This document shows, piece after piece, positions 659 to 51,912 of a stretch of 64,000 nt of DNA. The DNA is from a virus. The position numbers and the translations under genes are program-made. The notes beneath the pieces were generated by a model. It had not been told where the DNA came from. It searched no databases and was given only the letters and a program-made list of their open reading frames with translations. The stretch is from IMG/VR virus record IMGVR_UViG_3300029286_003706, positions 1-64,000 of that record; one strand, given 5' to 3'. Position 1 is the first letter of the stretch. Each line of letters starts with the position of its first letter.

Positions 659-1258
659 ATGTATATCAAAAGTTTCACCACATTTATAAACGAAAGTATG
701 GATAACGATAACAAAATTGAAGGTCACAGACACAAAATTTCCGATATTCAGAAAATCAAGGATTTTATTTTCGCTGGTAAAGCCATTTTCACAATTGAAT
801 CACAAGATAGTGGTGTTTGGTATACTTACCAAATGAATCAAGCAAAGAAGAATGAAAATCTTTTCTTTGTTTCCGTTTTAAGGGGTGCAGATAATCTTTC
901 TTCCTATTCTTATATGGGTTTAGTTATTAAAGAAGGTGAAAATTTCAAATTCACTTTGACCAAAAACTCCAAATATAAAATTGATGCAGTTTGTGTCAAA
1001 GCATTCAGTTTCTTCTTTACAAACATCACACGTAATTTTATACACCCGAAGATGAATTTCTATCATATGGGTATTTGTGGTAAATGTGGTAGGGTATTAA
1101 CAACGCCAGATTCAGTTGATAGGGGAATCGGACCAGTATGTGCTAAAAGTGTTATATCAGAAGAGGAAGAAATTAATATGGATCGTAAAAATAAACTGGT
1201 CAAAATGAGAAAAGAGTGGAATTACGATGATGTTAAAGCAAAAAGGAAATTAGGTTAA
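659..1258 (+). CDS. DUF6011-type zinc-finger protein with N-terminal capsid-targeting-like tag
   Basis: CGKCGRVLTTPDSVDRGIGPVCA motif; N-terminus MYIKSFTTFINES. Confidence 0.7.
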   Translation: MYIKSFTTFINESMDNDNKIEGHRHKISDIQKIKDFIFAGKAIFTIESQDSGVWYTYQMNQAKKNENLFFVSVLRGADNLSSYSYMGLVIKEGENFKFTLTKNSKYKIDAVCVKAFSFFFTNITRNFIHPKMNFYHMGICGKCGRVLTTPDSVDRGIGPVCAKSVISEEEEINMDRKNKLVKMRKEWNYDDVKAKRKLG

Positions 1259-1288
1259 TTTCTTTTATAAGAATTTATTAATTTAAAT

Positions 1289-1975
1289 TCATTGTTTTCT
1301 TTCGTTTAAACTTTCATTTTCACTGGTTGTAAATACTTCATCAAAATCAAGAGAAATAAGTTTTGTTAAATCTTTTGATAATTTATTCAAATCAGTATAT
1401 TTTAATATTTTTCCAAATTCAATGAAATTTTTATCTTCTTCATCCATCATAAAATAATAATCAATATCTTCCGTCAATTTTTCAAAACTAATTTGGGGTG
1501 TCATATTTTTTTCTCTTATGTAATAGTTTAGTGTTCTTTCAATCCATTTGAATAATTCATCACTAATTAATTTATAACCATCATAAGAATTTTTAATTTC
1601 TTTGAAAGAATTTAGATGGTGGAAATATTTTTTATCAATTAATTTTGGTATAATTTTACCATTCCTAATTAAACCACCCCTATCAAATTCAACTTCATAA
1701 GAACCCCGATTCCAATTAACATCTTCAGGTCTAACTTTTATTTCAAAAACCTCACCTTTTCTCATTTTAGCATAATTTTTGGCTTCATCATACGATGGTG
1801 TCATAAAAAATATTTCATCTTCTTTTAATCGTTCAGGTAATTCTTTACCACCATGATATAGTGTAACATAACCATCATCATCGATGTTGTTTTTGTTCAA
1901 CCCAAATGATCTCATATCTCTTAATGTATCTGACGAAATATTTTCATTCAAATATTCTGTAAAAGTTATTATCAT
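1289..1975 (-). CDS. putative ADP-ribosyltransferase-like internal virion protein
   Basis: VTLYHG...FFMTPSYDEAKNYA...SYEV resembles the ART fold motif order; N-terminus MIITFTEYLNEN. Confidence 0.5.
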   Translation of the reverse strand: MIITFTEYLNENISSDTLRDMRSFGLNKNNIDDDGYVTLYHGGKELPERLKEDEIFFMTPSYDEAKNYAKMRKGEVFEIKVRPEDVNWNRGSYEVEFDRGGLIRNGKIIPKLIDKKYFHHLNSFKEIKNSYDGYKLISDELFKWIERTLNYYIREKNMTPQISFEKLTEDIDYYFMMDEEDKNFIEFGKILKYTDLNKLSKDLTKLISLDFDEVFTTSENESLNERKQ

Positions 1976-1993
1976 AATGGTATATATAATTAT

Positions 1994-2785
1994 TCAAAAA
2001 ATAAATTCATCAAATTCTGTATAATCTTTATTCAAAATTAATAAGAAATTAAAACCTTGTTCTTTTACTGAATTTTCTTTTAAAATATTTCTTTCTTTGT
2101 GAATTTTATACCAATAATCAGATTTTATTTCTATTATTAAATTTAACTTTTCTATGTAAAAATCTGGATGATAATAACTTTTTTTATCATTGTAAAAATA
2201 TCTGATACTTTTTGGCTTTGATATCAAATCCAATATATTCATTTGAACACAATGTTCTAAGAAATCCTTTTCGTAATTTCCTTGATATAATAATCCGTTT
2301 TCCCAATAATTTATTTTAAATCCAGATTTTAAAGTTTTTTCAGAAATATCTCTGTTTTGTTGTGGATATTTATAACCACAATTTTTTAAATTTGTATCCT
2401 CTTTTTTCTTTTGGAATTGAACACATTTAGATGGATTATCAAAACCATATTTTAAAATAAAGGTGTCTTTTTTCTTTTCTTTTATAGATTCTAATTTTGA
2501 TATATTCATTCCATCTTTTATGAAACATTTATCCATTCTACATTTAGAACATGAATACAGATTGTCTTTATTATTTTTTATTATTTTCAAATAATCTTGA
2601 TATCTTATCATTTTTTCAAAATTACAGATGTCACATTTAACATTTATTTTGAGTCCACTACCCAATGTTAAATGTTTTATTGAAATTTTTAATTTTTGAA
2701 AAAGAACAGTTTTATATCCTAATTTTGTATAATATTTTATATTAAAATTACAAATATAAACATCAACATATTCATCCAATATCAT
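1994..2785 (-). CDS. free-standing homing-type endonuclease (Zn ribbon + KYG repeats + PD-(D/E)XK)
   Basis: KCDIC...CSKC, KYGFDNP, YHPDFYIEKLNLIIEIKS. Confidence 0.75.
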   Translation of the reverse strand: MILDEYVDVYICNFNIKYYTKLGYKTVLFQKLKISIKHLTLGSGLKINVKCDICNFEKMIRYQDYLKIIKNNKDNLYSCSKCRMDKCFIKDGMNISKLESIKEKKKDTFILKYGFDNPSKCVQFQKKKEDTNLKNCGYKYPQQNRDISEKTLKSGFKINYWENGLLYQGNYEKDFLEHCVQMNILDLISKPKSIRYFYNDKKSYYHPDFYIEKLNLIIEIKSDYWYKIHKERNILKENSVKEQGFNFLLILNKDYTEFDEFIF

Positions 2786-2937: not shown

Positions 2938-2957
2938 AATTTATTATTTGTTTTTAG

Positions 2958-2980
2958 TATATATTAAGCATTAAAGGTCA
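2958..2980 (-). promoter_or_regulatory. extended late-like promoter TGACCTTT-N6-TAATATATA
   Basis: Same motif and spacing as 11941-11963, 16222-16244, 32161-32183, 54099-54121. Confidence 0.6.
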
Positions 2981-5731: not shown

Positions 5732-6505
5732 TTATGTATCATTTGATGAAACGGGATTTTCAGATTGCCATTTTTCATAAAAATCACCCCAAGAAGTAAT
5801 TAAAAATTTTTGTCTTTCGGTATCAAAAACTATTGTTTTATCATAGGTATCACCCATATTAACATATAAACCTATTATATCATAATAATATTTGTTTACA
5901 AAAGCATTTTCATCGGTAATTGGTTCGACACCAAATCCATTAAGTATTTTATTTGCTTCTTCTAATATTTCGTCAACCATTTTATATTTTTGTAAAAGAT
6001 AATCACCCATTCTCATTTGTTTTTTTCTCAATGGTGATTTATCATTTATTTTTTTGTTCCAATAATATAATTTACTTTTAATTAATTCAATTTTATCATC
6101 AACAGATTCGTTTATAAATTGATCATATTTTTTGATATGTATGTTTTCATACGGAGAATTTGAATCTGACAATCCAGAACCTCTTTCTAAACGATAGTTT
6201 TTGGATAACCAATCTTCTGTTATACCACCTTCATTATATTCATTTAAATCGGCTGGTTCTTCGATAAATTCTTCTGTTTCTGTATTATAGATACATAATC
6301 CAAGTCCATCTGGATTATCATATTTACCCGGTTTTTTACGAAATTTTATTAATAACATTTCAACATTTAAAACATTCGGATCTGAAACATATCCTATAAC
6401 ATCAAAGGGTTCAAACATATCAGATGCTTTTTTTAACCCATTAAATTTTCTTTTTGGTATTATTTTATCTTTTTTTCTTTTTGGTATTATTTTATCTTTT
6501 TTCAT
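5732..6505 (-). CDS. hypothetical two-module protein with internal capsid-targeting-like tag
   Basis: Internal HIKKYDQFINES; N-terminal KKDKIIPKR duplicated in tandem. Confidence 0.65.
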   Translation of the reverse strand: MKKDKIIPKRKKDKIIPKRKFNGLKKASDMFEPFDVIGYVSDPNVLNVEMLLIKFRKKPGKYDNPDGLGLCIYNTETEEFIEEPADLNEYNEGGITEDWLSKNYRLERGSGLSDSNSPYENIHIKKYDQFINESVDDKIELIKSKLYYWNKKINDKSPLRKKQMRMGDYLLQKYKMVDEILEEANKILNGFGVEPITDENAFVNKYYYDIIGLYVNMGDTYDKTIVFDTERQKFLITSWGDFYEKWQSENPVSSNDT

Positions 6506-6516: not shown

Positions 6517-6780
6517 TTATTTTATTAATTCATCTAAATCATAGATAAATTTATCACTTAACATTTGTATATTGGTTAGTTGTTCTGATAATCTTTTAAT
6601 ATAATTTTGAATTGTGTATTTTGATGATTTTAAAATGTTATTTCTATATTCATCTATTAATTTTACAAAATCAATTTCCAAATCTTCCTGCCAAGGATAA
6701 TCTAAAAAACCAATAACTTTATTTTTATAATCATCATCAGAAATATTTTCGTTTAATTTAAATTCTTTTATATGTTTCAT
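6517..6780 (-). CDS. small protein with capsid-targeting-like tag
   Basis: MKHIKEFKLNENIS. Confidence 0.65.
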   Translation of the reverse strand: MKHIKEFKLNENISDDDYKNKVIGFLDYPWQEDLEIDFVKLIDEYRNNILKSSKYTIQNYIKRLSEQLTNIQMLSDKFIYDLDELIK

Positions 6781-6795: not shown

Positions 6796-9513
6796 TTATA
6801 TATTATTTTCAAAATCTTGAAATTTAGTAATAATCGATTCATTTGATTTATAATGTTCATTTTTCCACAATTTATATAATACTTTTTCTTGATACATTAG
6901 TTGTTTATTTTTTAAAATATCAATTGGTTCAATATTTTTGTTACTACCGAGTGATTTATAATATTTAAGTGGATCTTTTCCTGCTTTTCTTAACATATCT
7001 TTTTCTGCGGAACTCATTAAATGAAGTTGTCTTTCTTCATCTGGAACATCTTCACTTTTCATATAATTTTCAATTGATATAATTTGTACATCTGATGTAC
7101 CATTCACCATTCTCCAATCTGGTACTTGTCTATCTATGGGTGTGTTTTTATCAAAAAAAACAGTTTCGATTGTCCATTTTTTATTCCAAATTTTTAGCTT
7201 TAATTTTTCTTCTAATTCATCTATAATTTTTACAAAAACTTCTCTATTTGGATAATTCCAAAAGGATATTATTTTTTTATTTAACCACAATCTTCCAGAA
7301 TAGTTACGACAATTATCATCTACCCATTTAAAACCTTTAATGGAAATTGAATCGTGGGTTTCACCACCTTCACCAATCGCTACAATTACATCATCTCCTT
7401 GTAAATGACCAATGAAAGGTATTGCGTAATCATTTTTGTAAGTTAAATTATATTTATCGATATGATCGGGTGATTCGTTCATTTTTTCCTGATACATGGT
7501 TATAAATTCAAAATATTTTTCTAATTCATTTTCAGTTTCAAAATATTTTACATCCTGATGTGGTTTATAATTTACCATTTCACGCCCTTTAATTATCAAT
7601 CCATCATATCCCAATTTTATCATTTCATCTTCAATTGTAGTATTTTCTTTAAAAAATTGTAAATCATAATATTCTTTTCTATTATTATTTTTAGAAAAAT
7701 TAATGATAAGGTTTTGTATCCAAATTTCAGCGTTATTTAACGAATCAACTATTTTTGGATGTTTGGGTATCGCGTTTATAACATAATATAATTTGCCATA
7801 TTGTTTAGTCATTATTTTATTACTTAATGGAACTGTATATAAACCTTTACCAAATGATCCATAAACATCATTATATTTTCCTAATTCTTTTATACCCCTT
7901 AATGTAACATTTTTTCTTTTCCAATCCAAATAATCTTTTCGATTTTTCATATTTTCTTGATACATCAATTGTTTATTTTTTAAAATATCAATTGGTTCAA
8001 TATTTTTGTTACTACCAAGTGATTTGTAATATTTAAGTGGGTCTTTTCCAGATTTTCTTAACATATCCTTTTCAGCAGAACTCATTAAATGTAATTTTCT
8101 TAATTCATCGGGTTGATCTTCACTTTTTAAATATTCTTCAATAGGTATTAATTTTGTGGTAATATTTTCTTTGCCATTTTTTGATGAAATACATTGAAGA
8201 TAATTTTTATCAATTGCAACTTCACCTTTGAATAGAAATATTTCTATTTTCCAACCATTATTCCATATTTTATTAGAAATATTACCATACCAATTTATTA
8301 TTTTTTCTTTTAAAATAACCTCCAATTGATTTATAATATCTTCAAAGTCTTTTCTATTTGGGTATGTCCAAAATGATATAATTTTTTCACTAATCCATAA
8401 TCTACCGGGATATTTTATTGTCAAATTCCAATTATCTTGATGGTGTATTGAAACGTGACTCGTTCCCCAATCACCCACACAAACTTTCAGTTCACTTGAT
8501 TCTATAACACAATCAAATGGTAAAGCTTGTCCATTTGTCCATTTAATTTCTTGTTCTTTATAAATTATATTATCTGGTGATTCATTCATTTTTTCCTGAT
8601 AAATGGCTTGTTTATATGCTAATGGCGTTTGTTTACCAAGTGATTTGTAATATTTCAATGGGTCTTTTCCAGAACGTACTGTAAAAGGCAATGCGTCGTG
8701 ATTTAAATAAAATTTTTTATATTTATCAATATAATCAGGTGATTCGTTTAATGATTTAGATATTTTGATTAAACAACCATTATCTTCAAAAGAATTACGG
8801 TAATCCACAAATCCGAATTTTTTGAAAAAATTATAAAATCTTCTTTGCATAACATTTTCTATAAAAAAATTCTTCTCTTTATATTTATCCAATATTCGTT
8901 TTAATATAAGTGTGAATAATCCGGTTCCTCGTTTTACAGATTCTATTGTTGCTAAATCTATAACACTTATCAATTCATTATTATATACTCTTTTTGATTT
9001 TCTAACATACATTTTAAATCCATATACATAAATCCATTTGTTTCTTTCATTACCTTTAAGAAAATTATCAAATAAATCAATAAATTCATTTACAATATCA
9101 TCATTCAATATTGATTTTTTTGATTCGGAAATAAATTCCGGTTTAACTTTCATATAATCAAATAAATGTTCTTGATTTCTGGGTATTTCCACAGCAACTT
9201 CCGGAATCCCAAGTTCTTCAGCTGCCAAAATACGATGTCTACCATCACCAAAGGAGATAATATCATTGTAAATACCAACCACACTTGGTTCAAAAATTGG
9301 ATACCTTTGTATTTTTTTAGCTTCTGGATTATTCCAATTCTTAATAATATATTCTTTCGCTCTCTGAACCCTATTTCCAATTTGATTCTTACCACCTCTT
9401 ATACTGTAACTAGGGCTATCCTGTTCTAATCTATCTAATATTTTTGTTGGTGATACAAATATTATTTTATCACCCTTGTATCTAACTTCATATCTGATAT
9501 CTCTTAAATTCAT
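6796..9513 (-). CDS. 905-aa multidomain polyprotein (ParB/Srx-like, GNAT-like, ART-like and a duplicated unknown module)
   Basis: FGDGRHRILAA; KRGTGLF; FGKGLY...GYDGLII; modules separated by (I/L/M)xES motifs; ends IITKFQDFENNI. Confidence 0.7.
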   Translation of the reverse strand: MNLRDIRYEVRYKGDKIIFVSPTKILDRLEQDSPSYSIRGGKNQIGNRVQRAKEYIIKNWNNPEAKKIQRYPIFEPSVVGIYNDIISFGDGRHRILAAEELGIPEVAVEIPRNQEHLFDYMKVKPEFISESKKSILNDDIVNEFIDLFDNFLKGNERNKWIYVYGFKMYVRKSKRVYNNELISVIDLATIESVKRGTGLFTLILKRILDKYKEKNFFIENVMQRRFYNFFKKFGFVDYRNSFEDNGCLIKISKSLNESPDYIDKYKKFYLNHDALPFTVRSGKDPLKYYKSLGKQTPLAYKQAIYQEKMNESPDNIIYKEQEIKWTNGQALPFDCVIESSELKVCVGDWGTSHVSIHHQDNWNLTIKYPGRLWISEKIISFWTYPNRKDFEDIINQLEVILKEKIINWYGNISNKIWNNGWKIEIFLFKGEVAIDKNYLQCISSKNGKENITTKLIPIEEYLKSEDQPDELRKLHLMSSAEKDMLRKSGKDPLKYYKSLGSNKNIEPIDILKNKQLMYQENMKNRKDYLDWKRKNVTLRGIKELGKYNDVYGSFGKGLYTVPLSNKIMTKQYGKLYYVINAIPKHPKIVDSLNNAEIWIQNLIINFSKNNNRKEYYDLQFFKENTTIEDEMIKLGYDGLIIKGREMVNYKPHQDVKYFETENELEKYFEFITMYQEKMNESPDHIDKYNLTYKNDYAIPFIGHLQGDDVIVAIGEGGETHDSISIKGFKWVDDNCRNYSGRLWLNKKIISFWNYPNREVFVKIIDELEEKLKLKIWNKKWTIETVFFDKNTPIDRQVPDWRMVNGTSDVQIISIENYMKSEDVPDEERQLHLMSSAEKDMLRKAGKDPLKYYKSLGSNKNIEPIDILKNKQLMYQEKVLYKLWKNEHYKSNESIITKFQDFENNI
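6884..8091. repeat. ~140-nt internal direct repeat (about 6884-7023 and 7952-8091; partial third copy near 8635-8672)
   Basis: Encodes LHLMSSAEKDMLRK(S/A)GKDPLKYYKSLGSNKNIEPIDILKNKQLMYQE twice and GKDPLKYYKSLG a third time. Confidence 0.9.
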
Positions 9514-10691: not shown

Positions 10692-11915
10692 CTATATTTC
10701 TATTCGTATCATTTTATCATTGTTGATATTATAATACATCTGATTCAGATTGAAATCTAAATCGTGGGTGAACCATACACCCTTAACTTTTTTACCGATA
10801 TTTATCGCTGAATTTAAATCACGATCTATAAACAAATCTTTTGACACTTCCACAATTCTGTTATCTAATTGACTAGAAAACATAATTTCATCGGTTAAAC
10901 AATTTTGTTGTGAAGTATAGGCTTCATTTACATGATAATGATCAATATTTACTTTTTTGGATTTATATTCCAGAAAAGTTTTAAATCTACCCAGTGCAAG
11001 GGTTGATTTAGATATTCCACTTAATTTTTTATTTTCTTTACAAATTACCTTTTTCACTTTTAAATCACCAATAATTAATGAACCAATATTATTTTCGACA
11101 CATTCGTTAACTATATATGTTGACACTTTATGTTGGAAATCAATTACTTTATTTGATAATTTTCTTTTTTGTTTCTTAAATATATCATTTATTTTTTTAT
11201 ATTTATTACTATATTTCTTTTTTTTATCTTTAATTGATTGAAGATGTTCAATAGTTTTTTCTAGTTTATTTAGTTTAAAATTTTTAATTTGAATATTATT
11301 CATACAATTTGAATAACTGGTAACAATATTACTATATCCCAAATCAATTGACATAAAATTATTTTTATTTAATTTATTGTTTGATGATTTTTCAGTATAA
11401 ACAAAAACTACATAATAATCATTTTCATTTTCACGTTTAAAAGTAATAGTTTTAATATTTTCATTATTTATTATTGAACAATATCCCGGAAGATTGATTA
11501 CTAATTTCTTAGATAAATCCTGTGATGTGTCCAAAAGATTTATAATTAATTTATCACCAATGATTTTAAATCCACCCATACCTTTATTATAATCAAGGAT
11601 AAACGAAGTAAAATATTTATATGATTTGAATTTATACGGAAATTTAGAGGTAATATCCTTTTTACGTTTTTCATAAAACGATTTAATATTATTAGTTAAA
11701 TTTTTACAAGTATTTTGTGCGGATTTACTATTTATTGTTAATTTATTTGAAGATCTATAATCAACATATTTATCGTTTAATTCTTTAAAAGTTAATGTTT
11801 TTTCTTTAATACTATTCAATAAATGATTATATAATAAACGATGTTCATTAGAAAGAGTTTCCAATTTTATTTTTTGATTATAGTTTAATATCAATTTAAC
11901 TTTTAACGATAACAT
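10692..11915 (-). mobile_element. tnpB: TnpB RNA-guided nuclease (IS200/IS605-IS607 OrfB family), no adjacent transposase
   Basis: RLLYN, RuvC-I SIDLG, IIGDL, VNEAYTSQ, RuvC-III IDRDLNSAINI. Confidence 0.88.
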
Positions 11916-14155: not shown

Positions 14156-14443
14156 TCAAATGTTCCAAAAATCTGAGCTGTATTTACCAATAAGTATATC
14201 GCAAGTATTCATTATAGATTTATAAACCTCCCATACTTCATAAGAATTAGGATCACCAAGATTATGTTCTTGAAAAAATTTCTCTATTCTATCTTTTAAT
14301 TTTTTATCACTTATTTCAATAAATTTATAAACAAGTGGACTATTTATATAATATTCTAATTTATCACAGATATCCATTCCTTCTATCCATACTGGTCCGT
14401 GATAATTTCTATTAAATGCCTCAAAAGTTTTAATCTTTCTCAT
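14156..14443 (-). CDS. small protein with capsid-targeting-like tag
   Basis: MRKIKTFEAFN. Confidence 0.65.
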   Translation of the reverse strand: MRKIKTFEAFNRNYHGPVWIEGMDICDKLEYYINSPLVYKFIEISDKKLKDRIEKFFQEHNLGDPNSYEVWEVYKSIMNTCDILIGKYSSDFWNI

Positions 14444-15395: not shown

Positions 15396-15893
15396 ATGAA
15401 AAAGAAATTAGATGAAGTTCCATTATCAGATGATTCTGATGTTCATTGGGATTATTTGTATGTAGCTGATGGAAATGTTGTACGTAGTGATATAAAGGGG
15501 ACTGTTAGAGATTTGAAAAAAGATTTAAAATCCAGAGGTATTAGTTGTAATGTTATTACCACCTGTGATATTTTTTCCAGAATAGAAGATATTAAAATCC
15601 CAATTGAAAATATAATTATAGAAAAACCAAAATATAAACCAGTACCAAGAGATTCAGATTCTTATTTCTTTATAGGAAATAATAGAATAAAATTCAAAAA
15701 GATTGAATGGTATGAAGATACTTTTTGGAATAAAGTAGTGGGTGTTTGTGGAAATTTCTTCTTTGAAATTCAAGGAATGGATAAATTTTCACCAAAAAAA
15801 TGGATTTCAGATCAAAATTATGGAGATTATTTTACTATCAGGACAACAAAAAAAGTAGATTTATCAAAGTTGAATAAAATAAATTTGGATTAA
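15396..15893 (+). CDS. hypothetical protein
   Basis: 165-aa ORF. Confidence 0.7.
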   Translation: MKKKLDEVPLSDDSDVHWDYLYVADGNVVRSDIKGTVRDLKKDLKSRGISCNVITTCDIFSRIEDIKIPIENIIIEKPKYKPVPRDSDSYFFIGNNRIKFKKIEWYEDTFWNKVVGVCGNFFFEIQGMDKFSPKKWISDQNYGDYFTIRTTKKVDLSKLNKINLD

Positions 15894-16201
15894 AGTTGGT
15901 GATTGGTAATTAAATCTAAATTATTTTCTATTTTATTACAAACTTCTGGAAATTTAACAACATCATTCATACTCAATTTAAACCATTCATTTTTTATTCT
16001 AAGATGTGAATAAAGATGGTGAAGAACCCCCTCAACAGCTAATTTATGATGGGTATGATGTTCATATACAATTTTTAAATTACCATCGTTTCCAGTTTGA
16101 AGTTGTTTAGACCTCTTTTTAGACGATTTACGGGTATATCCAATTTTATACACCGTATCATAGTCTCTTACTGATTCGATTAAATAAACTATTCCCAGCA
16201 T
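15890..16201 (-). CDS. GIY-YIG (T5orf172-like) nuclease domain protein
   Basis: VYLI...YKIGYT...R.KQLQTGN...E..LH..Y...R...EWF. Confidence 0.85.
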   Translation of the reverse strand: MLGIVYLIESVRDYDTVYKIGYTRKSSKKRSKQLQTGNDGNLKIVYEHHTHHKLAVEGVLHHLYSHLRIKNEWFKLSMNDVVKFPEVCNKIENNLDLITNHQL

Positions 16202-16569: not shown

Positions 16570-16596
16570 AAAGGTTGTCAATTGACAACCTTTTTT
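16570..16596. terminator. bidirectional terminator-like inverted repeat
   Basis: AAAGGTTGTCAATTGACAACCTTTTTT between convergent genes. Confidence 0.75.
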
Positions 16597-16997
16597 GTTT
16601 CGCTTTGGACAATTAAATCAACATTATCTTCCGGTTTTGGTAATCTAGTTGTTAATTCGGATTTATTAACCAATGAAATTTCAGATAAAAGGGTTATATT
16701 TGGATCTTTACCAAACATTTTTTCATATAAATATTCAGCACAAAATTGATACCTAAATTTACCATTGAATTCATCTGTTATTTGCAATAATTCTTGATTA
16801 TTATCGAAATATTTTTCAATATAATCCCTTGTTTGATCCCATTGTTTGAAACTTTTTTCACTAATATGATTTATATCACATACAATTCCAACTAAATGAT
16901 CAAAAACTTTATCAACATATGTGTTATCTTCAAATAAATTATCGGTAGTAACAACAGTTTTATAATTTTCGTTTACAAAATCGTTAAATTTTTTCAT
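16578..16997 (-). CDS. protein with capsid-targeting-like tag (start revised)
   Basis: MKKFNDFVNEN directly after TAATATATA. Confidence 0.7.
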   Translation of the reverse strand: MKKFNDFVNENYKTVVTTDNLFEDNTYVDKVFDHLVGIVCDINHISEKSFKQWDQTRDYIEKYFDNNQELLQITDEFNGKFRYQFCAEYLYEKMFGKDPNITLLSEISLVNKSELTTRLPKPEDNVDLIVQSETKKVVN

Positions 16998-18097: not shown

Positions 18098-18532
18098 ATG
18101 AAAAGAGAACATAAATGGGATAAGGATGATACTATCATCGCCCTATATTACACAAAATTTGGTATAAAACATCTTCCGGTTAAAGATGAAAAAGATTTAG
18201 CTGAAAATATTATTGGGTCATCTTTGGATTCACTTAAAATGTTATCCACCACTTTGGGAAAAACACATGATGTGAGTTTTTCAAAAATTCAAAGGGAAGT
18301 TGTTGATGAATTCAAAAAAATGCAAGAAACTGATTTTCGGGATGTTGTTCTTGAAATCTTTTCTGATACTGAACGAAAAGTTGTTGTTGAAGAAAGAATC
18401 AAGGATCGAAAAGAAAATGAAAAAGAAGAAAAAGCAAAGGAAGAAAAGAAAAAATTGGATTCCATTTTTCGGAAAATGGGGAAAGACCCATCAAAAATGA
18501 GGAGTGTTGGTGTAAGACCTAAAGAATTTTAA
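18098..18532 (+). CDS. hypothetical early protein
   Basis: After TATATTTG at 18067-18074. Confidence 0.7.
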   Translation: MKREHKWDKDDTIIALYYTKFGIKHLPVKDEKDLAENIIGSSLDSLKMLSTTLGKTHDVSFSKIQREVVDEFKKMQETDFRDVVLEIFSDTERKVVVEERIKDRKENEKEEKAKEEKKKLDSIFRKMGKDPSKMRSVGVRPKEF

Positions 18533-20194
18533 GCTTCCAGAATCATAAATACGATAAATTTTTCTTTCTAACATGATTTCATGTTCGGTTTTATTTGGAT
18601 CAAAACCATCACGAATTAATTTATCTTTTCTAAAATTAAATCTATGTTTTCTAACACCATTCACTACATAATAGTAGTCGGGTGGTGTTTTACTTAGAAA
18701 TGTAAAACCTAATTTTTGATATAATTCACCCTGACTCCAAGAACGATCAGTACAACTAATCACTTCTTTTGGATTATAAGTTTTGATGAAATATTTAAAT
18801 AATTTTTCGGCACTACCCACTACTGATGTGTTTAATTTACTACAAAATATCAACATTTCATAAACACCATCAGAATTACTTTGTTTCATAAATTTACGTT
18901 TCGATCCAAAAGTCATTAAAGACACCAATTCATCATTGTAAAATAATCCTAATTTAATAGGTGAACCAACAAAACCCTGTAAATGGTTTTTTTCTAGAAA
19001 ACAACGAACTAATTTATTATCTATTATTTCTTTTATGATACATTTACGGGCATAAATTTTATTTGGTGTTTTTCCAAGTAAATTTAAGATTCTAGATTTA
19101 ACAATTTCCTGTTTAAATACCCAATCATCTTGAAAAATATGTATTAATTTAATATTAATACTTTCTGATAGTTCTGTTTTAATTGAATGATAATTGTTTT
19201 CTTTTTCTTTTTCATTATGCCAATAAACACCATTAAACTCAAACGCCAATTTCAAATCTGGTAAATAAATATCTAATTCATATGGTGAAATTATATTTCT
19301 TTTATTTAATTGAATTTCATTATTATAATTTTCTTTAATGAAATTTTGTAAATCTTTTTCTTGATTGGAAACTGAATCATTAAATGGATTACATATTATA
19401 CAATATGGTATTTTATATTTATATCTTTGAATTAAATTATTTATTTTTATATCGAAAATAGTTTTACATTTATCACACTTTATTGTATAAACACCTTTAT
19501 TAAAAGAAACTATTTCACAATTATATTTATCTATTGATTTTTTTAATTGTTTATCTTTATAAATATCAGATGTCATATAATTTTCAGAACCATATTTTTC
19601 AATATTAGTTTTTATCATTTTTTCTTTTATTGTGTCAGATTTAATGGGAAAATTTACACCGAATTTTTTAAAATTGGAATTTTTCATTTTTTCTTTAATT
19701 TCATTATTTAAAAAAAATGTATTATTTTTAATTTTCGTTTCTTTAATTTTATTTTTAACTTTATCAGATTTGGATGGATGACCACCATATATATATATAC
19801 AAGTATCATTTCTTTTTTGATGATTTAAATAATTTTCATTACCATATTTTTTTAACTTTGTATGTTTAGATTTTTTTATGATATCTTTATTTTGAAAAAC
19901 ATTTTCAGTACCATAAATTTCTATATTTGTTAATTTTCTTTTCTCACTTGAACATTTATTTGAACAAGAATAATAATTATATTTTTTAATATTTTTGTTA
20001 TAATTATAAAATGATATAATCTTTTCTTTATTACATACATCACATTTTGCTAAAATTTTAACACCAGATCCTTTAGATAAAATTTCTATGGGAATTTCTA
20101 TAATATCATTAAAATTAAAATTATATCCTAATTCTTTATAATATTTATAATTATTTGGATTGATTGTTATTTTTACACTGGTTGTTATTAACAT
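18491..20194 (-). CDS. Hef-like free-standing homing endonuclease (Zn ribbon, KYG repeats, Vsr-like nuclease, extra C-terminal domain)
   Basis: KCDVC, ELDIYLPDLKLAFEFNGVYWH, IYARKC, NHLQG, IYDSG; paralogue of 61545. Confidence 0.75.
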   Translation of the reverse strand: MLITTSVKITINPNNYKYYKELGYNFNFNDIIEIPIEILSKGSGVKILAKCDVCNKEKIISFYNYNKNIKKYNYYSCSNKCSSEKRKLTNIEIYGTENVFQNKDIIKKSKHTKLKKYGNENYLNHQKRNDTCIYIYGGHPSKSDKVKNKIKETKIKNNTFFLNNEIKEKMKNSNFKKFGVNFPIKSDTIKEKMIKTNIEKYGSENYMTSDIYKDKQLKKSIDKYNCEIVSFNKGVYTIKCDKCKTIFDIKINNLIQRYKYKIPYCIICNPFNDSVSNQEKDLQNFIKENYNNEIQLNKRNIISPYELDIYLPDLKLAFEFNGVYWHNEKEKENNYHSIKTELSESINIKLIHIFQDDWVFKQEIVKSRILNLLGKTPNKIYARKCIIKEIIDNKLVRCFLEKNHLQGFVGSPIKLGLFYNDELVSLMTFGSKRKFMKQSNSDGVYEMLIFCSKLNTSVVGSAEKLFKYFIKTYNPKEVISCTDRSWSQGELYQKLGFTFLSKTPPDYYYVVNGVRKHRFNFRKDKLIRDGFDPNKTEHEIMLERKIYRIYDSGSLKFFRSYTNTPHF

Positions 20195-21774: not shown

Positions 21775-21809
21775 GTTCTTATATATAAAACTAAAAGTGT
21801 TTTGTTTTT

Positions 21810-22034: not shown

Positions 22035-22064
22035 TATATAATAAAAACAAATATTTAAAAAAAA

Positions 22065-22793: not shown

Positions 22794-22835
22794 AACATTA
22801 ATAATAAAATAAAATATAAAAATAAAAATTAGATT

Positions 22836-23312: not shown

Positions 23313-23314
23313 TT

Positions 23315-30770: not shown

Positions 30771-31214
30771 ATGAAAAATCTAAAAACGTTTGAAAGTTTT
30801 AACGTTAAAAAACAAGAACAAAAAGGATTTACAAGTAATATAGAAAATGACACTTTGAAAAATGATAATTTTAGAAAAGTGTTATATACGAGTAAACATA
30901 TGCAACTTGTATTAATGAGTTTAAAACCCGGTGAAGATATTGGAAAAGAAACACATACTAATGTTGATCAATTTTTTAGATTTGAAGCTGGTAATGGTAA
31001 ATGTATTGTTAATGAAAATGAATACTTAGTAAATAATGGTGATGTTTTAATAGTACCATGTGGTAGTACACATAATATAATAAATATCGGAAAATCAGAT
31101 TTAAAAATATACACAATATATACACCACCTAATCATAAAGATGGAATAACATTCGGAACAAAATCCGAAGCATCTAATAGTAAAGAAAAATTTGATGGAA
31201 TAACAACCGAATGA
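30771..31214 (+). CDS. cupin-domain protein with capsid-targeting-like tag
   Basis: QLVLMSLKPGEDIGKETH..VDQFFRFE.G.G; VPCGSTHNI; LKIYTIYTPPNH; N-terminus MKNLKTFESFN. Confidence 0.85.
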   Translation: MKNLKTFESFNVKKQEQKGFTSNIENDTLKNDNFRKVLYTSKHMQLVLMSLKPGEDIGKETHTNVDQFFRFEAGNGKCIVNENEYLVNNGDVLIVPCGSTHNIINIGKSDLKIYTIYTPPNHKDGITFGTKSEASNSKEKFDGITTE

Positions 31215-32146
31215 TAACAAAATTTATTCAATACATAAAAGAAAATGATGATTACGATGAAAAACTTGTCAGAATAATGGCTTGGTTATTTATGTCATAT
31301 GTATATGATAATAATGATGGAATGAAAGAATCAAATTGGATTAATGATAACAGAATGGGAATATCTTTTAAATTGGCAATTAAATATTTATCTGAAAATG
31401 GTTTTGTTGAATTTATAAATGATAAATGGAAAATAACAAAAAAAGGAATAGATGAATTATTTTCATTTTTTAAAATTCCCACAAATAGAGATGAATGGTT
31501 GAATTATGATAATAGTTGGTTGAAAAAATATGATACTGTTCAATATCCAATTTCTAGGATTCCAACTGAAATATTTGAAAGAGAATTTGAAAAACACACA
31601 TCAGAAAATATTAAATATATACTTGAAAAAAGTGAATATTATGATATTGGTAAATGGTGGTATAAATATCAAAGAGGTACAATAGGTTGGTGGACAAAAA
31701 TGAACAAATATCTTGGTTTAAAAGGAGATTTAATGCCAGATGTTGATTCACTAATTTTATATAGGGGTATTAATTTAAAATGTGGTTCACCAGATAATGA
31801 AGAATATTTTAATAAAGAAATTTGTATTGGAATAAAAAATGGTGAAATTAAAAAAGGTGATAAAATAAAATGTAATAAATCCAGTTGGTCATTATCATCT
31901 AGTGTAGCTAAATCTTTCGCTAGTGGTAAAAAGGGTTTATCGGATCCAATATCAATGAAAGACACCGAAATCGGTATTGTTTTAAAAAATGAATTTAAAT
32001 CTTCTGAAATTTTATTAGATTCGGATTGGGTTAATAATCATAAATTTTTAAAAGATAAATCTGTATTTCCAAGTGAAATGGAGGTAATTATTCAACCAAA
32101 AACGAGATATGTTGAAATAATTCATATTTTTGATAATAAAAATTAA
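31211..32146 (+). CDS. putative R-S-E ADP-ribosyltransferase with capsid-targeting-like tag
   Basis: LYRG...SSWSLSSSVAKSFA...GIVL...SEMEVII; N-terminus MITKFIQYIKEN. Confidence 0.65.
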   Translation: MITKFIQYIKENDDYDEKLVRIMAWLFMSYVYDNNDGMKESNWINDNRMGISFKLAIKYLSENGFVEFINDKWKITKKGIDELFSFFKIPTNRDEWLNYDNSWLKKYDTVQYPISRIPTEIFEREFEKHTSENIKYILEKSEYYDIGKWWYKYQRGTIGWWTKMNKYLGLKGDLMPDVDSLILYRGINLKCGSPDNEEYFNKEICIGIKNGEIKKGDKIKCNKSSWSLSSSVAKSFASGKKGLSDPISMKDTEIGIVLKNEFKSSEILLDSDWVNNHKFLKDKSVFPSEMEVIIQPKTRYVEIIHIFDNKN

Positions 32147-34909: not shown

Positions 34910-35236
34910 TTAAATCGAAAATTCATCTTCTATTAATCCTTTAAGATTTTTTAAATTTATTTTTAATTCCGGTTCTGATGATTTCAATAAACTTTTGAAG
35001 TAAGAAAATGGTGGTTTTTTCTTACTTAGACTGTCATTTAAGATTTTATTTGTTTTTAGAATATCTAAAACTAATCTATATTTTCTTAGATTTGTTTGAT
35101 ATAATTTTTCTAATTCATTATAATATATTTCTTGCAACTTTTTCTCTAATGGTTCAAAATCAGATTCCATATCGTAATATTTTTTATCAACGAAATGTCT
35201 ATCTTCATTCAAAAAGTCTTTAAATTTAGTTATCAT
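34910..35236 (-). CDS. protein with capsid-targeting-like tag
   Basis: MITKFKDFLNED. Confidence 0.7.
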   Translation of the reverse strand: MITKFKDFLNEDRHFVDKKYYDMESDFEPLEKKLQEIYYNELEKLYQTNLRKYRLVLDILKTNKILNDSLSKKKPPFSYFKSLLKSSEPELKINLKNLKGLIEDEFSI

Positions 35237-35523
35237 TAAGTATAAGTGATTTCAACTACAACTGTTTCATATCCAAAAGTATTATACCATTGACCAGTTA
35301 CAGTGTCCCAATAATTATAGGTTCTACCACCATCGTTTGAACATCTGGAACCAATAATTGGATCTCTAACATAACTAGTAAAAGTATGACCAGAATAATT
35401 TTGAAGCATATATTGAGTTACAGATGCATCATCACCCCTCATTGGTAATTCTGGAAAATATAAAGTGTTAATATGAAGTGTGTCATCAAAAGCTCTCACC
35501 GTTGGACTATCTATTGTTGGCAT
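35236..35523 (-). CDS. small putative virion protein
   Basis: TAATATATA upstream; T/G/Y-rich; contains SGHT. Confidence 0.65.
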   Translation of the reverse strand: MPTIDSPTVRAFDDTLHINTLYFPELPMRGDDASVTQYMLQNYSGHTFTSYVRDPIIGSRCSNDGGRTYNYWDTVTGQWYNTFGYETVVVEITYT

Positions 35524-36162: not shown

Positions 36163-36711
36163 ATGATAACCAAATTTCAAATATATGAAGCTCAAATTAG
36201 AGATTGTATTGAAAAAACTAAAAAATCTAAATATAAATCTAATCCAGATATAGAATCTTATATTAATAAAAGTGCTAATCGAAAATTTGAAGATGATTCA
36301 CCTTTATTGTATACTGTTTATTTGGAAGATTATGATATAAATTTAAATTTTGAATACTATGATACTCCATCTCATAGTATAAAAGAGAAAATAAAAAATA
36401 GAACATCACTCAAAAGTGTATCAGAATTTAATGATGTTTTTGAAAAAACTATAAAAACTATAATACCAGATAAATTAGGAATTGGAATAGATAAAATTGA
36501 TAAAAAAGGTTGTTATGCTCTTTATTTAATGGAAAATAAATTTTTTATTTTAATAGATATTGATCCAAATTCTTTAATCGAAGGTTATTTTATTGATAAA
36601 TATGGTAGAAAAACTACAAAAAAATATCATTCCTTTGTTATCACAATACACGATAAATCTAGCATTGATAGATATTATAAAATGTTTGATATAGATGATA
36701 GTAATTTTTAA
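36163..36711 (+). CDS. protein with capsid-targeting-like tag
   Basis: MITKFQIYEAQ directly after TAATATATA. Confidence 0.7.
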   Translation: MITKFQIYEAQIRDCIEKTKKSKYKSNPDIESYINKSANRKFEDDSPLLYTVYLEDYDINLNFEYYDTPSHSIKEKIKNRTSLKSVSEFNDVFEKTIKTIIPDKLGIGIDKIDKKGCYALYLMENKFFILIDIDPNSLIEGYFIDKYGRKTTKKYHSFVITIHDKSSIDRYYKMFDIDDSNF

Positions 36712-37025: not shown

Positions 37026-37259
37026 TTACGTTGTTATTACCGAAACTTGTTGTTTTGCTAAATTTATGGTGTTATCTGTTGCATGTAGTGGGTCTTTATA
37101 ATCATTATTTACAGTAGAAACATTGGCAACAATTTCTTCTTGTTGTTTCTTTCTGGATTTTTTCCTACCTTTCTTCGTAAATTCTTTAAAAGTCTGAGTT
37201 TTACCACCACCCCAATTACTTTCAACGTTTTCTAATAAAAATTCTTTATAATTTTTCAT
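37026..37259 (-). CDS. small protein with capsid-targeting-like tag (start revised)
   Basis: MKNYKEFLLEN directly after TAATATATA; second copy TFKEF internally. Confidence 0.7.
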   Translation of the reverse strand: MKNYKEFLLENVESNWGGGKTQTFKEFTKKGRKKSRKKQQEEIVANVSTVNNDYKDPLHATDNTINLAKQQVSVITT

Positions 37260-37368: not shown

Positions 37369-37989
37369 CTATACTGACCTTAAACCATTTCTCCATAAAT
37401 GATGTTTCAAACAAAATTTTTGAAACCCTCCTGTTATAATATATTCATTGCCAATTGGGTCTATTATTTTATATTTTTTATAGTTGTGATTTTTATCTCC
37501 TGTTTTAGATAATCTAATTTTTTCTTTGGTTTTATCACTATGACCAATACCATATAACGGATGTTTTTCACCAGATATACTTTTACTCTGTTTTTCTTTT
37601 GATTCTTGACTTCTTTTTTTACCCATTAACGACAAAGATATTTTATCTCTTATTTCATTTGTTCTACAATAAAAACCACCATCTCCACCATCCCCACCTT
37701 GAGTCATGTTATATCCTTTTATAAAAGATTCATATTTATCAATGAAAAATATTTCTTTTTCATTGAGTTTTTTTTTATCATCACAAGTGTATAAAATTTC
37801 CCATTCAAAATTTTCTTCACCATATTTACGAATAGCATTATAAAAGATTCTGGGATGACACCCCTTTTTCAAATCATATCCATTTTTAGCTGATCGAATG
37901 TGTATATGTTTGTATTTTTCGAAGTCCTGAATAGTTTTACCTATATACATTTTACCATTTAATTTGTTTTGCACTTTATATATTATCAT
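37369..37989 (-). CDS. GIY-YIG homing endonuclease with NUMOD3 repeats; C-terminus appears frameshifted
   Basis: IIYK...MYIGKT, AIRKYG.ENF, GYNMT.GGDG, HSDKTKEKIR; HKGWKC tail lies in another frame. Confidence 0.88.
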   Translation of the reverse strand: MIIYKVQNKLNGKMYIGKTIQDFEKYKHIHIRSAKNGYDLKKGCHPRIFYNAIRKYGEENFEWEILYTCDDKKKLNEKEIFFIDKYESFIKGYNMTQGGDGGDGGFYCRTNEIRDKISLSLMGKKRSQESKEKQSKSISGEKHPLYGIGHSDKTKEKIRLSKTGDKNHNYKKYKIIDPIGNEYIITGGFQKFCLKHHLWRNGLRSV

Positions 37990-42344: not shown

Positions 42345-42887
42345 TCATTTTTTTATAAAATTTACGATATTTTTTAAAACTTTTTGTTTTTTATTAAGTC
42401 TAATAAAAGAGAAATCAACAAGACCTATTTCATGCTCTTTTGTATAAAAAATAATTTTATTTACAATTTCAGGTATGTCTTTTAAATTCAAAAATTTTTC
42501 AAAGTTATTAATCACTACCGTTTCTTTACAAACTATGTTTGTAATTATCAATATGATTTGTAATGAAATAGATATTCTTTTTTTTAATATAATGAAATTT
42601 GGAATTGAATTTATCAATTCATCATGTAACAATTTTGATTTATTTAAGTCTAATTTGAGTTTTTCAGCTAAAATATGAATTATTATTAATATAAGGTTAT
42701 CATCTGTTATTTGTGTATTATCTTTTAGTATGAGTTTTTTAAATAATTTATATATAGTTGTCAAAGGAATTATTTTAGTTCCAAGAATACTTGATTCAAA
42801 ACCACATTTTTTAACTAATCTATTATGATTAGAAATATATTGGTTATATTTTTTTACAAAATCAGTGAATTTATCAACTTTTTTCAT
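42345..42887 (-). CDS. hypothetical late protein with weak capsid-targeting-like tag
   Basis: MKKVDKFTDFVKK. Confidence 0.6.
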   Translation of the reverse strand: MKKVDKFTDFVKKYNQYISNHNRLVKKCGFESSILGTKIIPLTTIYKLFKKLILKDNTQITDDNLILIIIHILAEKLKLDLNKSKLLHDELINSIPNFIILKKRISISLQIILIITNIVCKETVVINNFEKFLNLKDIPEIVNKIIFYTKEHEIGLVDFSFIRLNKKQKVLKNIVNFIKK

Positions 42888-48441: not shown

Positions 48442-49011
48442 ATGAAAAACTTCAATCAATTTTTATTCGAAGAAATAATATCAGATCCAAAATCACTTTT
48501 AGATAGTATTAATGCTAAAAAAGTATCTACTAATATTTTTAATATAAATATTAATGATTTTAAGGATATAGAAGATTTGTTTGAAGATGAAAAATTTAAT
48601 AAAGAATTGATTAATGGTGAATTTAAAAAAGATAATTTAGAAAGTACAAAAGAATATGAAACTTTTTTAAAAAATACCTTAAATGTTAAATATTTTTTAA
48701 TATTTAAAGATAATCAAAATGAATTGGAAAAACCAAAATATATTTTCATTCAAATAAAAAAAGATCAAAAGTGGGGAACAATACAATTTTATAAAGTTAA
48801 TTCGAATATGAAGAATTTCTATGATTTATTAACGAATAAGAAAATAGAAATAAAATCAAATGGAAAAAGTTACATTTATGTTACTACAAATGGTGGATTT
48901 GATTGGACACTTCAAAATTTACAAAATCAGGATTCATCATTTAAAAATATAATGAGGAATGAAGATATTAATAAAATACTTCAAAATTCCATTGTTCAAG
49001 AAATAGATTAA
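48442..49011 (+). CDS. protein with capsid-targeting-like tag
   Basis: MKNFNQFLFEE directly after TTATATATA. Confidence 0.7.
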   Translation: MKNFNQFLFEEIISDPKSLLDSINAKKVSTNIFNININDFKDIEDLFEDEKFNKELINGEFKKDNLESTKEYETFLKNTLNVKYFLIFKDNQNELEKPKYIFIQIKKDQKWGTIQFYKVNSNMKNFYDLLTNKKIEIKSNGKSYIYVTTNGGFDWTLQNLQNQDSSFKNIMRNEDINKILQNSIVQEID

Positions 49012-50030: not shown

Positions 50031-50080
50031 TTTAATATAATTTTTTTTATTATATATTAAAAATGATAATTCTTAAAATT

Positions 50081-50713
50081 CTAATATTGATAATTCTTTG
50101 TGCTTTTACGGCATTTTATTTGTGCAAGATTATTTTTTTCTCGATCCCCTTTTTCTAATCCAAATTTTTTCTTTTTTAAAACCAACCCCTCAATCATGTC
50201 TATTTTTGTTAATTTTTCCCAAATTGAATCGAATTCAGTGAAAAATGATTTTACCAACCAAACGTTTTCAGTTATTTGATAACTATATTCATTTTCACCT
50301 ATGATCTGATCCTTAAAAATATCGTATAAAAGTTTCCATCTATCTTCAAATGTTTTTCCAAGAAAATAATCATCATTAAAAACAAGAATATCGAATATAA
50401 CAAATTTATGGTTGAATGTTTTATTTGTTTCATCTTTCTTTGATTTGTCCATGTATTCACCCACCACAACATTCCAACCATCGTTTTGAAATAATTTACG
50501 TAATTCAGACGGATCTAATTTCCATCTTGTTAACGGTTCGTTATGACGATTCATTGGTAGAAATTTTTCGGAATTGAAAAAAATCGGACCACAATCACCA
50601 TTGAATTTTGGTTGAGCTAAAAATGAACCATCATCATATTCTCTAAGAACTGATTTTGGTATTTTTTTTTCCGGACGTGGTGGATAAATGTAACGATAAG
50701 ATTTATATTCCAT
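50081..50713 (-). CDS. minimal ATP-dependent ligase (adenylation domain only)
   Basis: AQPKFNG, VVGE, FVIFDIL, IEGLVLK, KCRK. Confidence 0.75.
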   Translation of the reverse strand: MEYKSYRYIYPPRPEKKIPKSVLREYDDGSFLAQPKFNGDCGPIFFNSEKFLPMNRHNEPLTRWKLDPSELRKLFQNDGWNVVVGEYMDKSKKDETNKTFNHKFVIFDILVFNDDYFLGKTFEDRWKLLYDIFKDQIIGENEYSYQITENVWLVKSFFTEFDSIWEKLTKIDMIEGLVLKKKKFGLEKGDREKNNLAQIKCRKSTKNYQY

Positions 50714-50937
50714 AGATTATTTTTCTTTCAAATATGATTTTAAAATAACAATTCGTTTCAGTCGATTTTTACAAAAATGATTAGTACCGTGTTTGATAAT
50801 TGATTTTCGACATGATAATTCTAAATATTTTATTTTGGATAAAGCTTCTACTTTAGTTAAATTTTCCATATTTCCATTATTTTTCAAATACAAAATTACA
50901 ACTTTTTTTAATTAAAAAAAATTTTATATATATCTTT

Positions 50938-51912
50938 ATGATAAAAAAATTCCATTTATTTGAAAAACAACTGCAACTTTTTGATTTACCAAAAACAGAT
51001 AAGGATGTTATACACCAAGTCATAACCAAACATCAAACAAAACCAGTACCAGTAAATATTAAAAGGGGAAATAAATTACAAGATGATTTGGATAAGTGGA
51101 CGAGTGAAGAAATTATAAACAAAAAAATTTATGATTATTTGAAAAATAGTGATTTTGGTGGTGATTATATGGATTTATTATCGAAAAATCTTGAAGTTTT
51201 ATGTGATTACGTGGAAGAAAAACCAGAAATGATTTCTAATAGTTATAAAAATTTACCAGAATGGCCAAAAAATGAACGGGGAAAAGAAAAAACTTTATCA
51301 GAAATAATAAGGTCTGATGATTATTGGTTTTGTCATGTAGATAATTACGTTGAAGATGAAGACGATTTTAAAAATTATTTTTTGGAATCCACAAAAAATA
51401 ATTTATATCAACTTTATGACGTAGAATATTTATATGATTTGAAAGATGCTATTTATGATTCAAAAGACCCATATAGATTGAAAATTTATAGGGCTATAAC
51501 ATTACCAAAGAATGTCGAAGAGTTGGACGATTATAATGGTGTCGGTGTTTATTGGACGTATGACAAAGAAAAAGCGGAGGCTTATTGGTCCAAACATAAT
51601 AGAGAATTTATTTTAGAAGGATGGGTTTATTCTAATGGAATTGATTGGGAAGAAACGGTTTATAAGTCTATTTATATTATGAAAGATGAAAGGGAAATTT
51701 TTTTATATAATGAAACACCAATTGAATTGACTTCGGTTTATATGAAAAGTATATATAATGAATTTAGAGAAATTAATTCAGTAATTGATGAAGAAAAACG
51801 GATTATTAAATTATTTGGTTTGAAAAGCGATCAAATTTCAAATTATTTAATAAACAAACACAAAAATATGTCTACGATTATTTTTGATGAACCAATCTGG
51901 GTGAAAGCATGA
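50938..51912 (+). CDS. putative ADP-ribosyltransferase-like internal virion protein
   Basis: KIYRAI...GVYWTYDKEKAEAYW...DEREI; N-terminus MIKKFHLFEKQ. Confidence 0.5.
   Translation: MIKKFHLFEKQLQLFDLPKTDKDVIHQVITKHQTKPVPVNIKRGNKLQDDLDKWTSEEIINKKIYDYLKNSDFGGDYMDLLSKNLEVLCDYVEEKPEMISNSYKNLPEWPKNERGKEKTLSEIIRSDDYWFCHVDNYVEDEDDFKNYFLESTKNNLYQLYDVEYLYDLKDAIYDSKDPYRLKIYRAITLPKNVEELDDYNGVGVYWTYDKEKAEAYWSKHNREFILEGWVYSNGIDWEETVYKSIYIMKDEREIFLYNETPIELTSVYMKSIYNEFREINSVIDEEKRIIKLFGLKSDQISNYLINKHKNMSTIIFDEPIWVKA

Follow-up and report, generated by a model that had tools for sequence, protein, structure and literature searches.

The IMG/VR virus record IMGVR_UViG_3300029286_003706 is a contig of 78,010 bp with 25% GC, whose first 64 kb (64,000 nucleotides, nt; called the window for simplicity) contain a series of genes that begin with a similar short peptide, here called the tag, which resembles the capsid-targeting sequence (CTS) of phage T4. 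The completeness estimate of the contig was 11%, implying a genome near 700 kb, and three lake-water metagenome runs contained nearly all of a 9-kb test stretch. Genes were called with a simple codon-usage method, which gave 111 genes on the contig (89% coverage), 91 of them in the window. The closest complete genome in the phage collection was LR756501 (735 kb), with 47% identity over a protein of 1388 amino acids (aa), and 45 of the 111 called contig genes had a homologue in it. LR756501 belongs to the 'Mahaphage' clade, in which it is one of the largest genomes; Bacteroidetes hosts are predicted for clade members exceeding 634 kb (PMC7162821).

Tagged genes on the contig and in related genomes

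Tags were scored with a strict pattern, [FY]xx[FY][LIVMF]xE, which had to lie in residues 1-16. Thirteen N-terminal peptides that a preliminary description had picked out by position and strand were all found in place, each at the first ATG of its open reading frame (ORF). They mark 13 of the 91 window genes: seven are strict, two have the short form KFx[LI][FY]E and four are looser variants (6780, 14443, 30771 and 42887; tagged genes are named by their start position). A further eight tagged genes are located beyond the window, at 64-78 kb of the contig, bringing the total to about 21. The tagged genes of the window are as follows, with a slash after the tag Glu.

659..1258 (+): 199 aa, MYIKSFTTFINE/S (tag at nt 659-694), strict, TATATA upstream
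1289..1975 (-): 228 aa, MIITFTEYLNE/N (tag at nt 1943-1975), strict, no Pfam match, TATATA upstream
6517..6780 (-): 87 aa, MKHIKEFKLNE/N, variant with a single aromatic residue and an LNE site
14156..14443 (-): 95 aa, MRKIKTFEAFN, variant KTFExF, aliphatic-x-Glu site absent in register
16578..16997 (-): 139 aa, MKKFNDFVNE/N, strict, TATATA upstream
30771..31214 (+): cupin, 147 aa, MKNLKTFESFNVKKQEQ followed by the cupin body (Pfam Cupin_2, 49.7 bits)
31211..32146 (+): 311 aa, MITKFIQYIKE/N, strict, no Pfam match
34910..35236 (-): 108 aa, MITKFKDFLNE/D, strict
36163..36711 (+): 182 aa, MITKFQIYE/A, short form I-Y-E, TATATA upstream
37026..37259 (-): 77 aa, MKNYKEFLLE/N, strict
42345..42887 (-): 180 aa, MKKVDKFTDFVKK, variant with the aromatic pair kept and no Glu
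48442..49011 (+): 189 aa, MKNFNQFLFE/E, strict
50938..51912 (+): 324 aa, MIKKFHLFE/K, short form L-F-E, TATATA upstream

The strict tag was present in 12 of the 111 contig genes against 0.33 expected from the internal rate. Windows beginning at an internal Met matched in 1 of 349 cases, and shuffling of each N-terminus gave a mean of 0.30 matches with a maximum of 3 in 1000 trials. The Glu of the strict tags on the contig was located at residues 10-13, and the residue after the tag Glu was mostly N, S, A, E or D. A scan of the genome and its relatives, as proposed in the preliminary description, revealed a tag excess on the contig as well as in three relatives with complete genomes, namely in LR756501 (32% GC; 51 of 965 genes, 2.6 expected), in the first 381 kb of LR745206 (29% GC; 15 of 508, 1.8 expected) and in the first 381 kb of LR756500 (24% GC; 19 of 472, 1.2 expected), the last with the form MKYIKEYEEFLxE and with Glu at residue 13 in 18 of its 19 tags. 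In these four tag-bearing genomes pooled, 4.72 motif starts per 1000 positions were found at residues 1-10 and 0.34 beyond residue 50, i.e. the N-terminal rate was 14 times the internal one. Two equally AT-rich relatives with the same head-gene type exhibited no tag excess: Prevotella phage Lak-B1 (first 381 kb, 26% GC; 0 of 400, 0.65 expected) and Tenacibaculum phage PTm1 (30% GC; 2 of 283, 0.7 expected). The same pipeline applied to T4 (35% GC) identified 3 of 244 genes (0.66 expected), namely ipII, ipIII and gp61.1. The gp61.1 protein, a hypothetical 54-aa product encoded at 18966-19130 (-) of AF158101 and adjoining the primase gene, has the CTS-like start MKTFKEFIKED.

Conservation acts at the level of the peptide and does not stem from repeated DNA. 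Codons varied at the conserved positions (TTT/TTC/TAT; ATA/TTA/TTG/GTA) with F/Y and L/I/V interchanging, as expected for selection on the peptide, and exact DNA matches at tagged gene starts were no longer than at untagged starts. The helical hydrophobic moment of the tags was 3.4 standard deviations above shuffles, and Pro or Gly occupied 1 of 231 tag positions versus 53 of 990 positions in untagged starts. A hydrophobic core after a basic N-region, as in Sec, Tat or lipoprotein signals, was not seen in the tags, which alternate charged or polar with aromatic residues and end in Glu. De novo expectation maximization on the N-termini caught the initial Met in one run and only a diffuse K-K-[FY]-x-x-[FLY]-[LI] in another; since these motif models were uninformative, explicit patterns with controls were used. 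Tagged genes were frequently adjacent to each other (30 adjacent pairs in LR756501, 14.1 expected; 7 on the contig, 3.5 expected).

The T4 CTS is MKTYQEFIAE (PMC8442874); residues 4 and 7 are the main determinants of its targeting function and residues 8 and 10 those of its processing, Asp at residue 10 stops cutting and not targeting, and gp21 cuts after L/I-X-E (PMC9026906). The likeness to this sequence put forward in the preliminary description extends to all four functionally mapped positions (Y, F, I, E), which are the four conserved positions of the tag. Exact T4 numbering is kept in three window tags, MKKFNDFVNE (16997; aromatics at residues 4 and 7, Val 8, Glu 10), MKNYKEFLLE (37259) and MKNFNQFLFE (48442), and that of 37259 is closest to the T4 sequence (M1, K2, Y4, E6, F7 and E10 identical, L for I at position 8). 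The [FY]xx[FY] pair occurs in about 19 of 21 tags; 6780 has a single aromatic residue, and in the short forms the two aromatics are a different distance apart. All 12 strict tags, as well as the short forms 36163, 50938 and 73089, have an aliphatic residue at P3 together with Glu at P1; according to the codon count P3 is L, I or V in every strict contig tag, and elsewhere it is L, I, V, M or F by definition of the pattern. The T4 gp23 site FGSFLTE/AEIGG, whose cut position we take to be at the slash, fits the tag pattern as well.

Bodies of the tagged proteins and upstream sequences

When the first 16 residues were removed, the tagged bodies were mutually unrelated in BLASTP, save one weak pair. 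Pfam names few of them: DUF6011 in 659..1258 (45 bits), Cupin_2 in 30771 and, with borderline scores, PARP/Tpt1-type folds in two genes that lie beyond the window, 66395 (PARP, 18.6 bits) and 70508 (Tpt1, 26.3 bits against a cut-off of 26 bits; PARP, 25.7 bits, below the cut-off of 26.7 bits). The cupin and the DUF6011 domain that had been named from the sequence are hence supported by Pfam, whereas the ART-like domain amounts in the window to a weak lead in 31211..32146, for which an Atlas search returned sub-threshold leads only (a weak DRAT-like lead, score 0.81). The start of 31211..32146 overlaps the stop of the cupin gene, placing both in the same operon.

The cupin encoded at 30771..31214 has thousands of homologues. 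Bacterial homologues of 132 aa with 67-73% identity begin exactly at the start of the phage body, after the 17-residue leader, and one untagged homologue of this length is named from a Chitinophagaceae genome bin; other metagenomic homologues bear different leaders, some of them tag-like (MKKFNEFIQKE, MEKIISFSIFE). In the AlphaFold2 prediction residues 1-17 were unstructured (predicted local distance difference test, pLDDT, below 50) and the barrel spanned residues 34-118. Two homologous pairs between the contig and LR756501 are tagged on both sides with different tag sequences (65775 and 48442, the 47% identical homologue of 48442..49011 bearing MRIKGYNKFVKED), and three are tagged on one side only, 70439 and 71545 on the contig and 57579 in LR756501. 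The LR756501 homologue of 42345..42887 begins MVQISKYEDFKK. An LR756501 homologue was found for 6 of 20 tagged and 39 of 91 untagged genes. The unrelated bodies, the untagged bacterial cupins and the homologous pairs tagged on one side bear out the earlier proposal of a portable tag on diverse bodies and demonstrate, at the level of sequence, natural grafting of the tag onto foreign bodies.

LR756501 has a second shared peptide: 92 of its 965 called proteins contain DP[YFW]GEE, mostly as (E/D)LDPYGEE(N/D/E)W, on unrelated bodies of 55-1179 aa. This DPYGEE-W peptide very often forms the last ~10 residues or stands right behind an N-terminal tag, and the motif is absent from the 78-kb contig.

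Most tags had been described as lying behind a late motif and none directly after an early promoter, and both statements agree with the upstream sequences. A late-like TATATA was found at most 45 nt upstream of 12 of 20 tagged versus 23 of 91 untagged genes on the contig (p 0.006), and in LR756501 upstream of 58 of 117 tagged versus 187 of 848 untagged genes (p 1.5e-9), where it also precedes the portal, protease-scaffold and capsid genes. The motif-less tagged genes, all but 14443, are directly downstream of a TATATA-bearing gene, e.g. 34910..35236 (-) downstream of 35236-35523; 14156..14443 (-) is the sole tagged gene without the motif of its own or on an upstream gene. The TATATA upstream of 6517..6780 (-) overlaps the stop codon of ORF 6796-9513. 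None of the sequences directly before tagged genes contained a convincing TAnnTTTG promoter of the host type. A recurring ttgtaattttgta element of the TAnnTTTG type precedes untagged genes (upstream of 17049, 17539, 50869 (-), 58497 (-) and 61432 (-)); we take this type to resemble the -7 box of Bacteroidetes, and the element is a possible early promoter of the host type.

Use of the tag away from the N-terminus had been suggested for two sites, both of which exist.

6104..6139 (-): internal tag-like HIKKYDQFINES, residues 123-134 of ORF 5732-6505, preceded by neither ATG nor TATATA
6808..6834 (-): C-terminal tag-like IITKFQDFE, residues 894-902 of the 905-aa ORF 6796-9513, preceded by SNE/S

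Such sites are, however, no commoner than chance: the motif was not enriched in the C-terminal tails of the four genomes (5 versus 8.7 expected; 12 versus 6.6 with a looser pattern), and its internal use outside the scaffold was not above chance. The IITKFQDFE sequence runs into the TATATA of the next gene and may be a remnant or a chance match. ORF 6796-9513 (-) contains a duplicated module of ~190 residues and three near-identical linkers, (L/M)NESPD, which resemble aliphatic-x-Glu protease sites, making a polyprotein possible.

Elsewhere in the window, 27497-28948 (-) and 28968-30686 (-), encoding 483 and 572 aa, jointly match one 1094-aa protein of LR756501 (462896+), whose counterpart is split here into two ORFs with a 19-nt gap between them. 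Genes of mobile-element type are dense: PHROGs identified 18491-20194 (-) as an HNH/homing endonuclease and 10692-11915 (-) as a transposase-family protein, and by eye the starts of 37369-37989 (-) and 15890-16201 (-) resemble GIY-YIG or T5orf172-type nucleases.

Head machinery and scaffold repeats in relatives

The head genes of LR756501 stand in the order Portal_T4 (236 bits), the gene of an 807-aa protein, and Gp23 capsid gene (90.6 bits). The 807-aa protein is similar to Peptidase_S77 over its first ~170 residues, and its remainder is a fused scaffold. Portal, protease-scaffold and Gp23 genes are found in T4 gene order also in LR745206, LR756500 and PTm1, the PTm1 counterpart being annotated 'prohead core scaffolding protein and protease', and Lak-B1 encodes a protease-scaffold protein far from the capsid gene. 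A single-sequence PDB search with the whole LR756501 protease-scaffold protein gave nothing useful and a profile of the protease domains was needed; that of three phage protease domains yielded a single PDB match, 5JBL (T4 gp21 prohead protease, E 9.5e-8). The motifs GE-DHP and SSRAAG are conserved among the three aligned domains, the His of DHP and the Ser of SSRAAG presumably being the catalytic residues as in gp21. Behind the protease domain, each of the four protease-scaffold proteins has an aliphatic-N/S-Glu-Ser/Ala site, and the density of aliphatic-x-Glu-small sites in the scaffold parts is 5-10 times that in the proteomes, as expected if the scaffold is digested like T4 gp22. A second, stand-alone S77-like ORF of LR756501 at 11314-11850 (-) (178 aa, 24.7 bits, below the family cut-off) is located far from the head module and has the C-terminal end LDPYGEENWSE.

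The scaffold of LR756501 contains 14 strict-pattern matches, of 62 internal ones in the whole 965-gene proteome, and 12 of the 14 follow each other at an exact period of 14 residues (YSEYIAENLDKSI...; YSEYIAEN...). The LR745206 scaffold has 11 matches, ten at the 14-residue period, LR756500 has a decayed version with 2 matches, and the scaffolds of the untagged phages PTm1 and Lak-B1 have 0. In the structure prediction the repeat region formed a single uninterrupted helix some 215 residues long, whose core had a pLDDT near 90. IMG/VR contained 521 confirmed relatives of the protease, the best 80 of which had 46-92% identity; every complete scaffold among these 80 contained 2-16 pattern matches, and 31 of 848 (3.7%) of their neighbouring genes carried a strict tag, e.g. 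MKKVRLYEDFIAED. Between close IMG/VR relatives the scaffold repeat number differs by exact multiples of 14 residues (-14, +28). Long T4 frames that could be gp22 contained no scaffold-type match to the tag pattern. A further repeat protein of LR756501, 1691 aa long and encoded at 21458-26533 (-), has seven repeats with a period of ~58-61 residues, each with AIGTFVKYIIEIQK fitting the tag pattern.

Proposed head loading and competing explanations

Judged from the comparisons above, the tag is likely a T4-type head-loading and trimming tag that has been greatly expanded in an uncultured clade of huge phages. The sequence of events we infer, comprising late timing, docking, cleavage, retention and injection, would start with the expression of the tagged genes together with the head genes. 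During prohead assembly the first ~10 residues would fold into a small amphipathic helix and, by means of their aromatic pair, dock to the helical part of the protease-scaffold protein, i.e. to the 14-residue repeats with their aromatic-x-x-aromatic-aliphatic-x-Glu signature. A gp21-like serine protease would cut after Glu according to the aliphatic-x-Glu rule, both in the scaffold repeats and in the tags, whereupon scaffold fragments would exit and the trimmed cargo would remain in the head and finally enter the host together with the DNA. Under this mimicry model the tag would imitate one scaffold repeat unit, the cargo would co-assemble and the tethered protease would free it. By analogy to T4, we propose only tentatively that all tagged cargo is retained and injected. 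That 50 to more than 100 proteins per genome (5-18% of genes) are loaded into the head via one scaffold-mimicking tag is a model which we likewise regard as possible, though short of probable.

Several observations weigh against head loading or against parts of the proposed mechanism. On the contig (78 kb, ~11% of the genome) no protease, scaffold or capsid gene was identified and PF03420 had no match, and the comparison of the large window proteins with PHROGs yielded no head genes. The tag-bearing clade is uncultured, and head loading of 5-18% of all gene products would be unprecedented. Unlike the T4 internal proteins, the tagged proteins are not basic, and their median isoelectric point was no different from that of untagged proteins (6.8 versus 6.2). 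Four of the 13 window tags, and four to six of the ~21 tags in total, have no in-register aliphatic-x-Glu site, which is absent in 14443, 30771, 42887 and 69954; by T4 rules some of these tags might be targeted but uncut. On the contig TATATA is also found before a helicase gene and a transposase gene, so that late expression of the tagged genes together with the head genes is something we infer. Residue preferences differ between scaffold (Y..Y[IL]AE) and tags ([FY]..F[LIV]NE). A matrix built from the scaffold repeats only, used at a 1% control cut-off, recognized a modest 6.2% of N-termini on this contig and 4.5% in LR756501, compared to 3.2% in the untagged control PTm1 and 1.1% in Lak-B1, which indicates that the tag shares the scaffold pattern and is not a copy of the scaffold repeat. 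The tandem scaffold repeat is also about one event per related lineage and thus offers few independent observations. Due to the mismatch in preferences, the modest enrichment and the single event per lineage, docking by repeat mimicry is presented here as a model and not as a result.

The tag might alternatively dock the tagged proteins not to the prohead core but to some other partner that they have in common, for instance an unfoldase, a phage chaperone or a different late assembly or compartment. Cargo that includes ordinary-looking enzymes (the cupin) and lacks basic character would be in line with such a partner, and with a second peptide, DPYGEE-W, on 92 LR756501 proteins these phages may run several address systems. 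We nevertheless regard this explanation as unlikely: all four T4 CTS determinants are matched and the gp21 cleavage rule is followed, the pattern is repeated in the head scaffold of the tag-bearing relatives only, and the tag is enriched behind a motif that also precedes head genes. It is quite improbable in our view that the tag is only a removable propeptide or scaffold-like element of proteins which are degraded, expelled or activated by cleavage and not kept and injected. The bodies are folded, diverse and enzyme-like, some come from bacteria, and as cargo they fit better than as scaffold; moreover, T4 proteins with this tag remain in the head and get injected (PMC9026906, PMC8442874). What speaks for a mere propeptide is the richness of the scaffold in aliphatic-x-Glu sites, the repeated (L/M)NESPD linkers of ORF 6796-9513, which look like multiple cut sites, and the fate of the T4 core proteins gp22, gp67 and gp68, which are cut up and then leave the head (PMC9026906).

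An N-terminal amphipathic helix sending late proteins to the membrane would account for the high helical hydrophobic moment, the abundance of Lys and aromatic residues and the near absence of Pro and Gly. However, membrane-targeting helices are not characterized by a conserved Glu at a fixed distance with a small or polar residue behind it, the helix has only ~10 residues, and neither the likeness to the T4 CTS nor that to the scaffold repeat would be explained, making this role very improbable. In a genome of 25% GC, where K, N, I, F and Y are common, the tag could in principle be a by-product of AT-rich codons, of selection on the start region or of a repeated DNA cassette boundary. Such an origin was effectively refuted by the N-terminus shuffles (0.30 versus 12 observed), by the missing excess in the AT-rich controls Lak-B1 and PTm1 and by the varied codons without longer DNA matches at tagged starts.

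Among known systems, the CTS of T4 IPII and IPIII (Mullaney and Black 1996, reviewed in PMC9026906) likewise comprises ~10 residues at the extreme N-terminus of unrelated bodies. As in the tag, its aromatics are three apart and followed by an aliphatic residue, any residue and Glu; both occur in a phage family with gp20 portal, gp21 protease and gp23 capsid, and tagged genes cluster in variable regions. The scale differs, with 12-21 of the 111 contig genes and 51-117 of the 965 LR756501 genes compared to two proven carriers and three pattern matches in 244 genes in T4, and so do the fusion of protease and scaffold in the relatives, the repetition of the tag pattern in the scaffold and the non-basic cargo. 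With the propeptides of T4 gp23 and gp24 and of the giant phages phiKZ and SPN3US, in which many head-internal proteins are processed, the tag would share cleavage C-terminal to Glu by a prohead protease of the S77 type. Sites of the phiKZ type are S/A-X-E without other determinants, and the propeptides are long and dissimilar (PMC9026906). The tags do not have this form: they are short shared leaders with an aliphatic P3 and two aromatics, reused on many proteins. Encapsulin cargo-loading peptides are also short and portable and bring unrelated enzymes into an HK97-fold shell, but they are usually C-terminal, bind the shell protein directly and remain uncleaved, with neither scaffold nor protease. 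Other huge-phage clades carry different short terminal tags (MNWYK..., MNRYDIALGKKPPP), the one reported here being the tag that matches the T4 CTS. No description of such expanded CTS-like tagging was found in the literature searched.

To our knowledge, the T4 CTS has been a textbook curiosity restricted to very few proteins. Here, about one contig gene in six and 51 to about 117 genes of LR756501 are marked by a signal of the T4 type. If the proposed role is correct, the match between tag and scaffold repeat would provide a concrete, testable docking model and a first structural account of CTS recognition, and a plain sequence rule would suffice to predict and list the injected proteins. A large part of the coding capacity that is unexplained in huge phages would then consist of proteins delivered with the DNA, including enzymes from the host lineage, and these would represent the largest set of packaged and injected proteins known.

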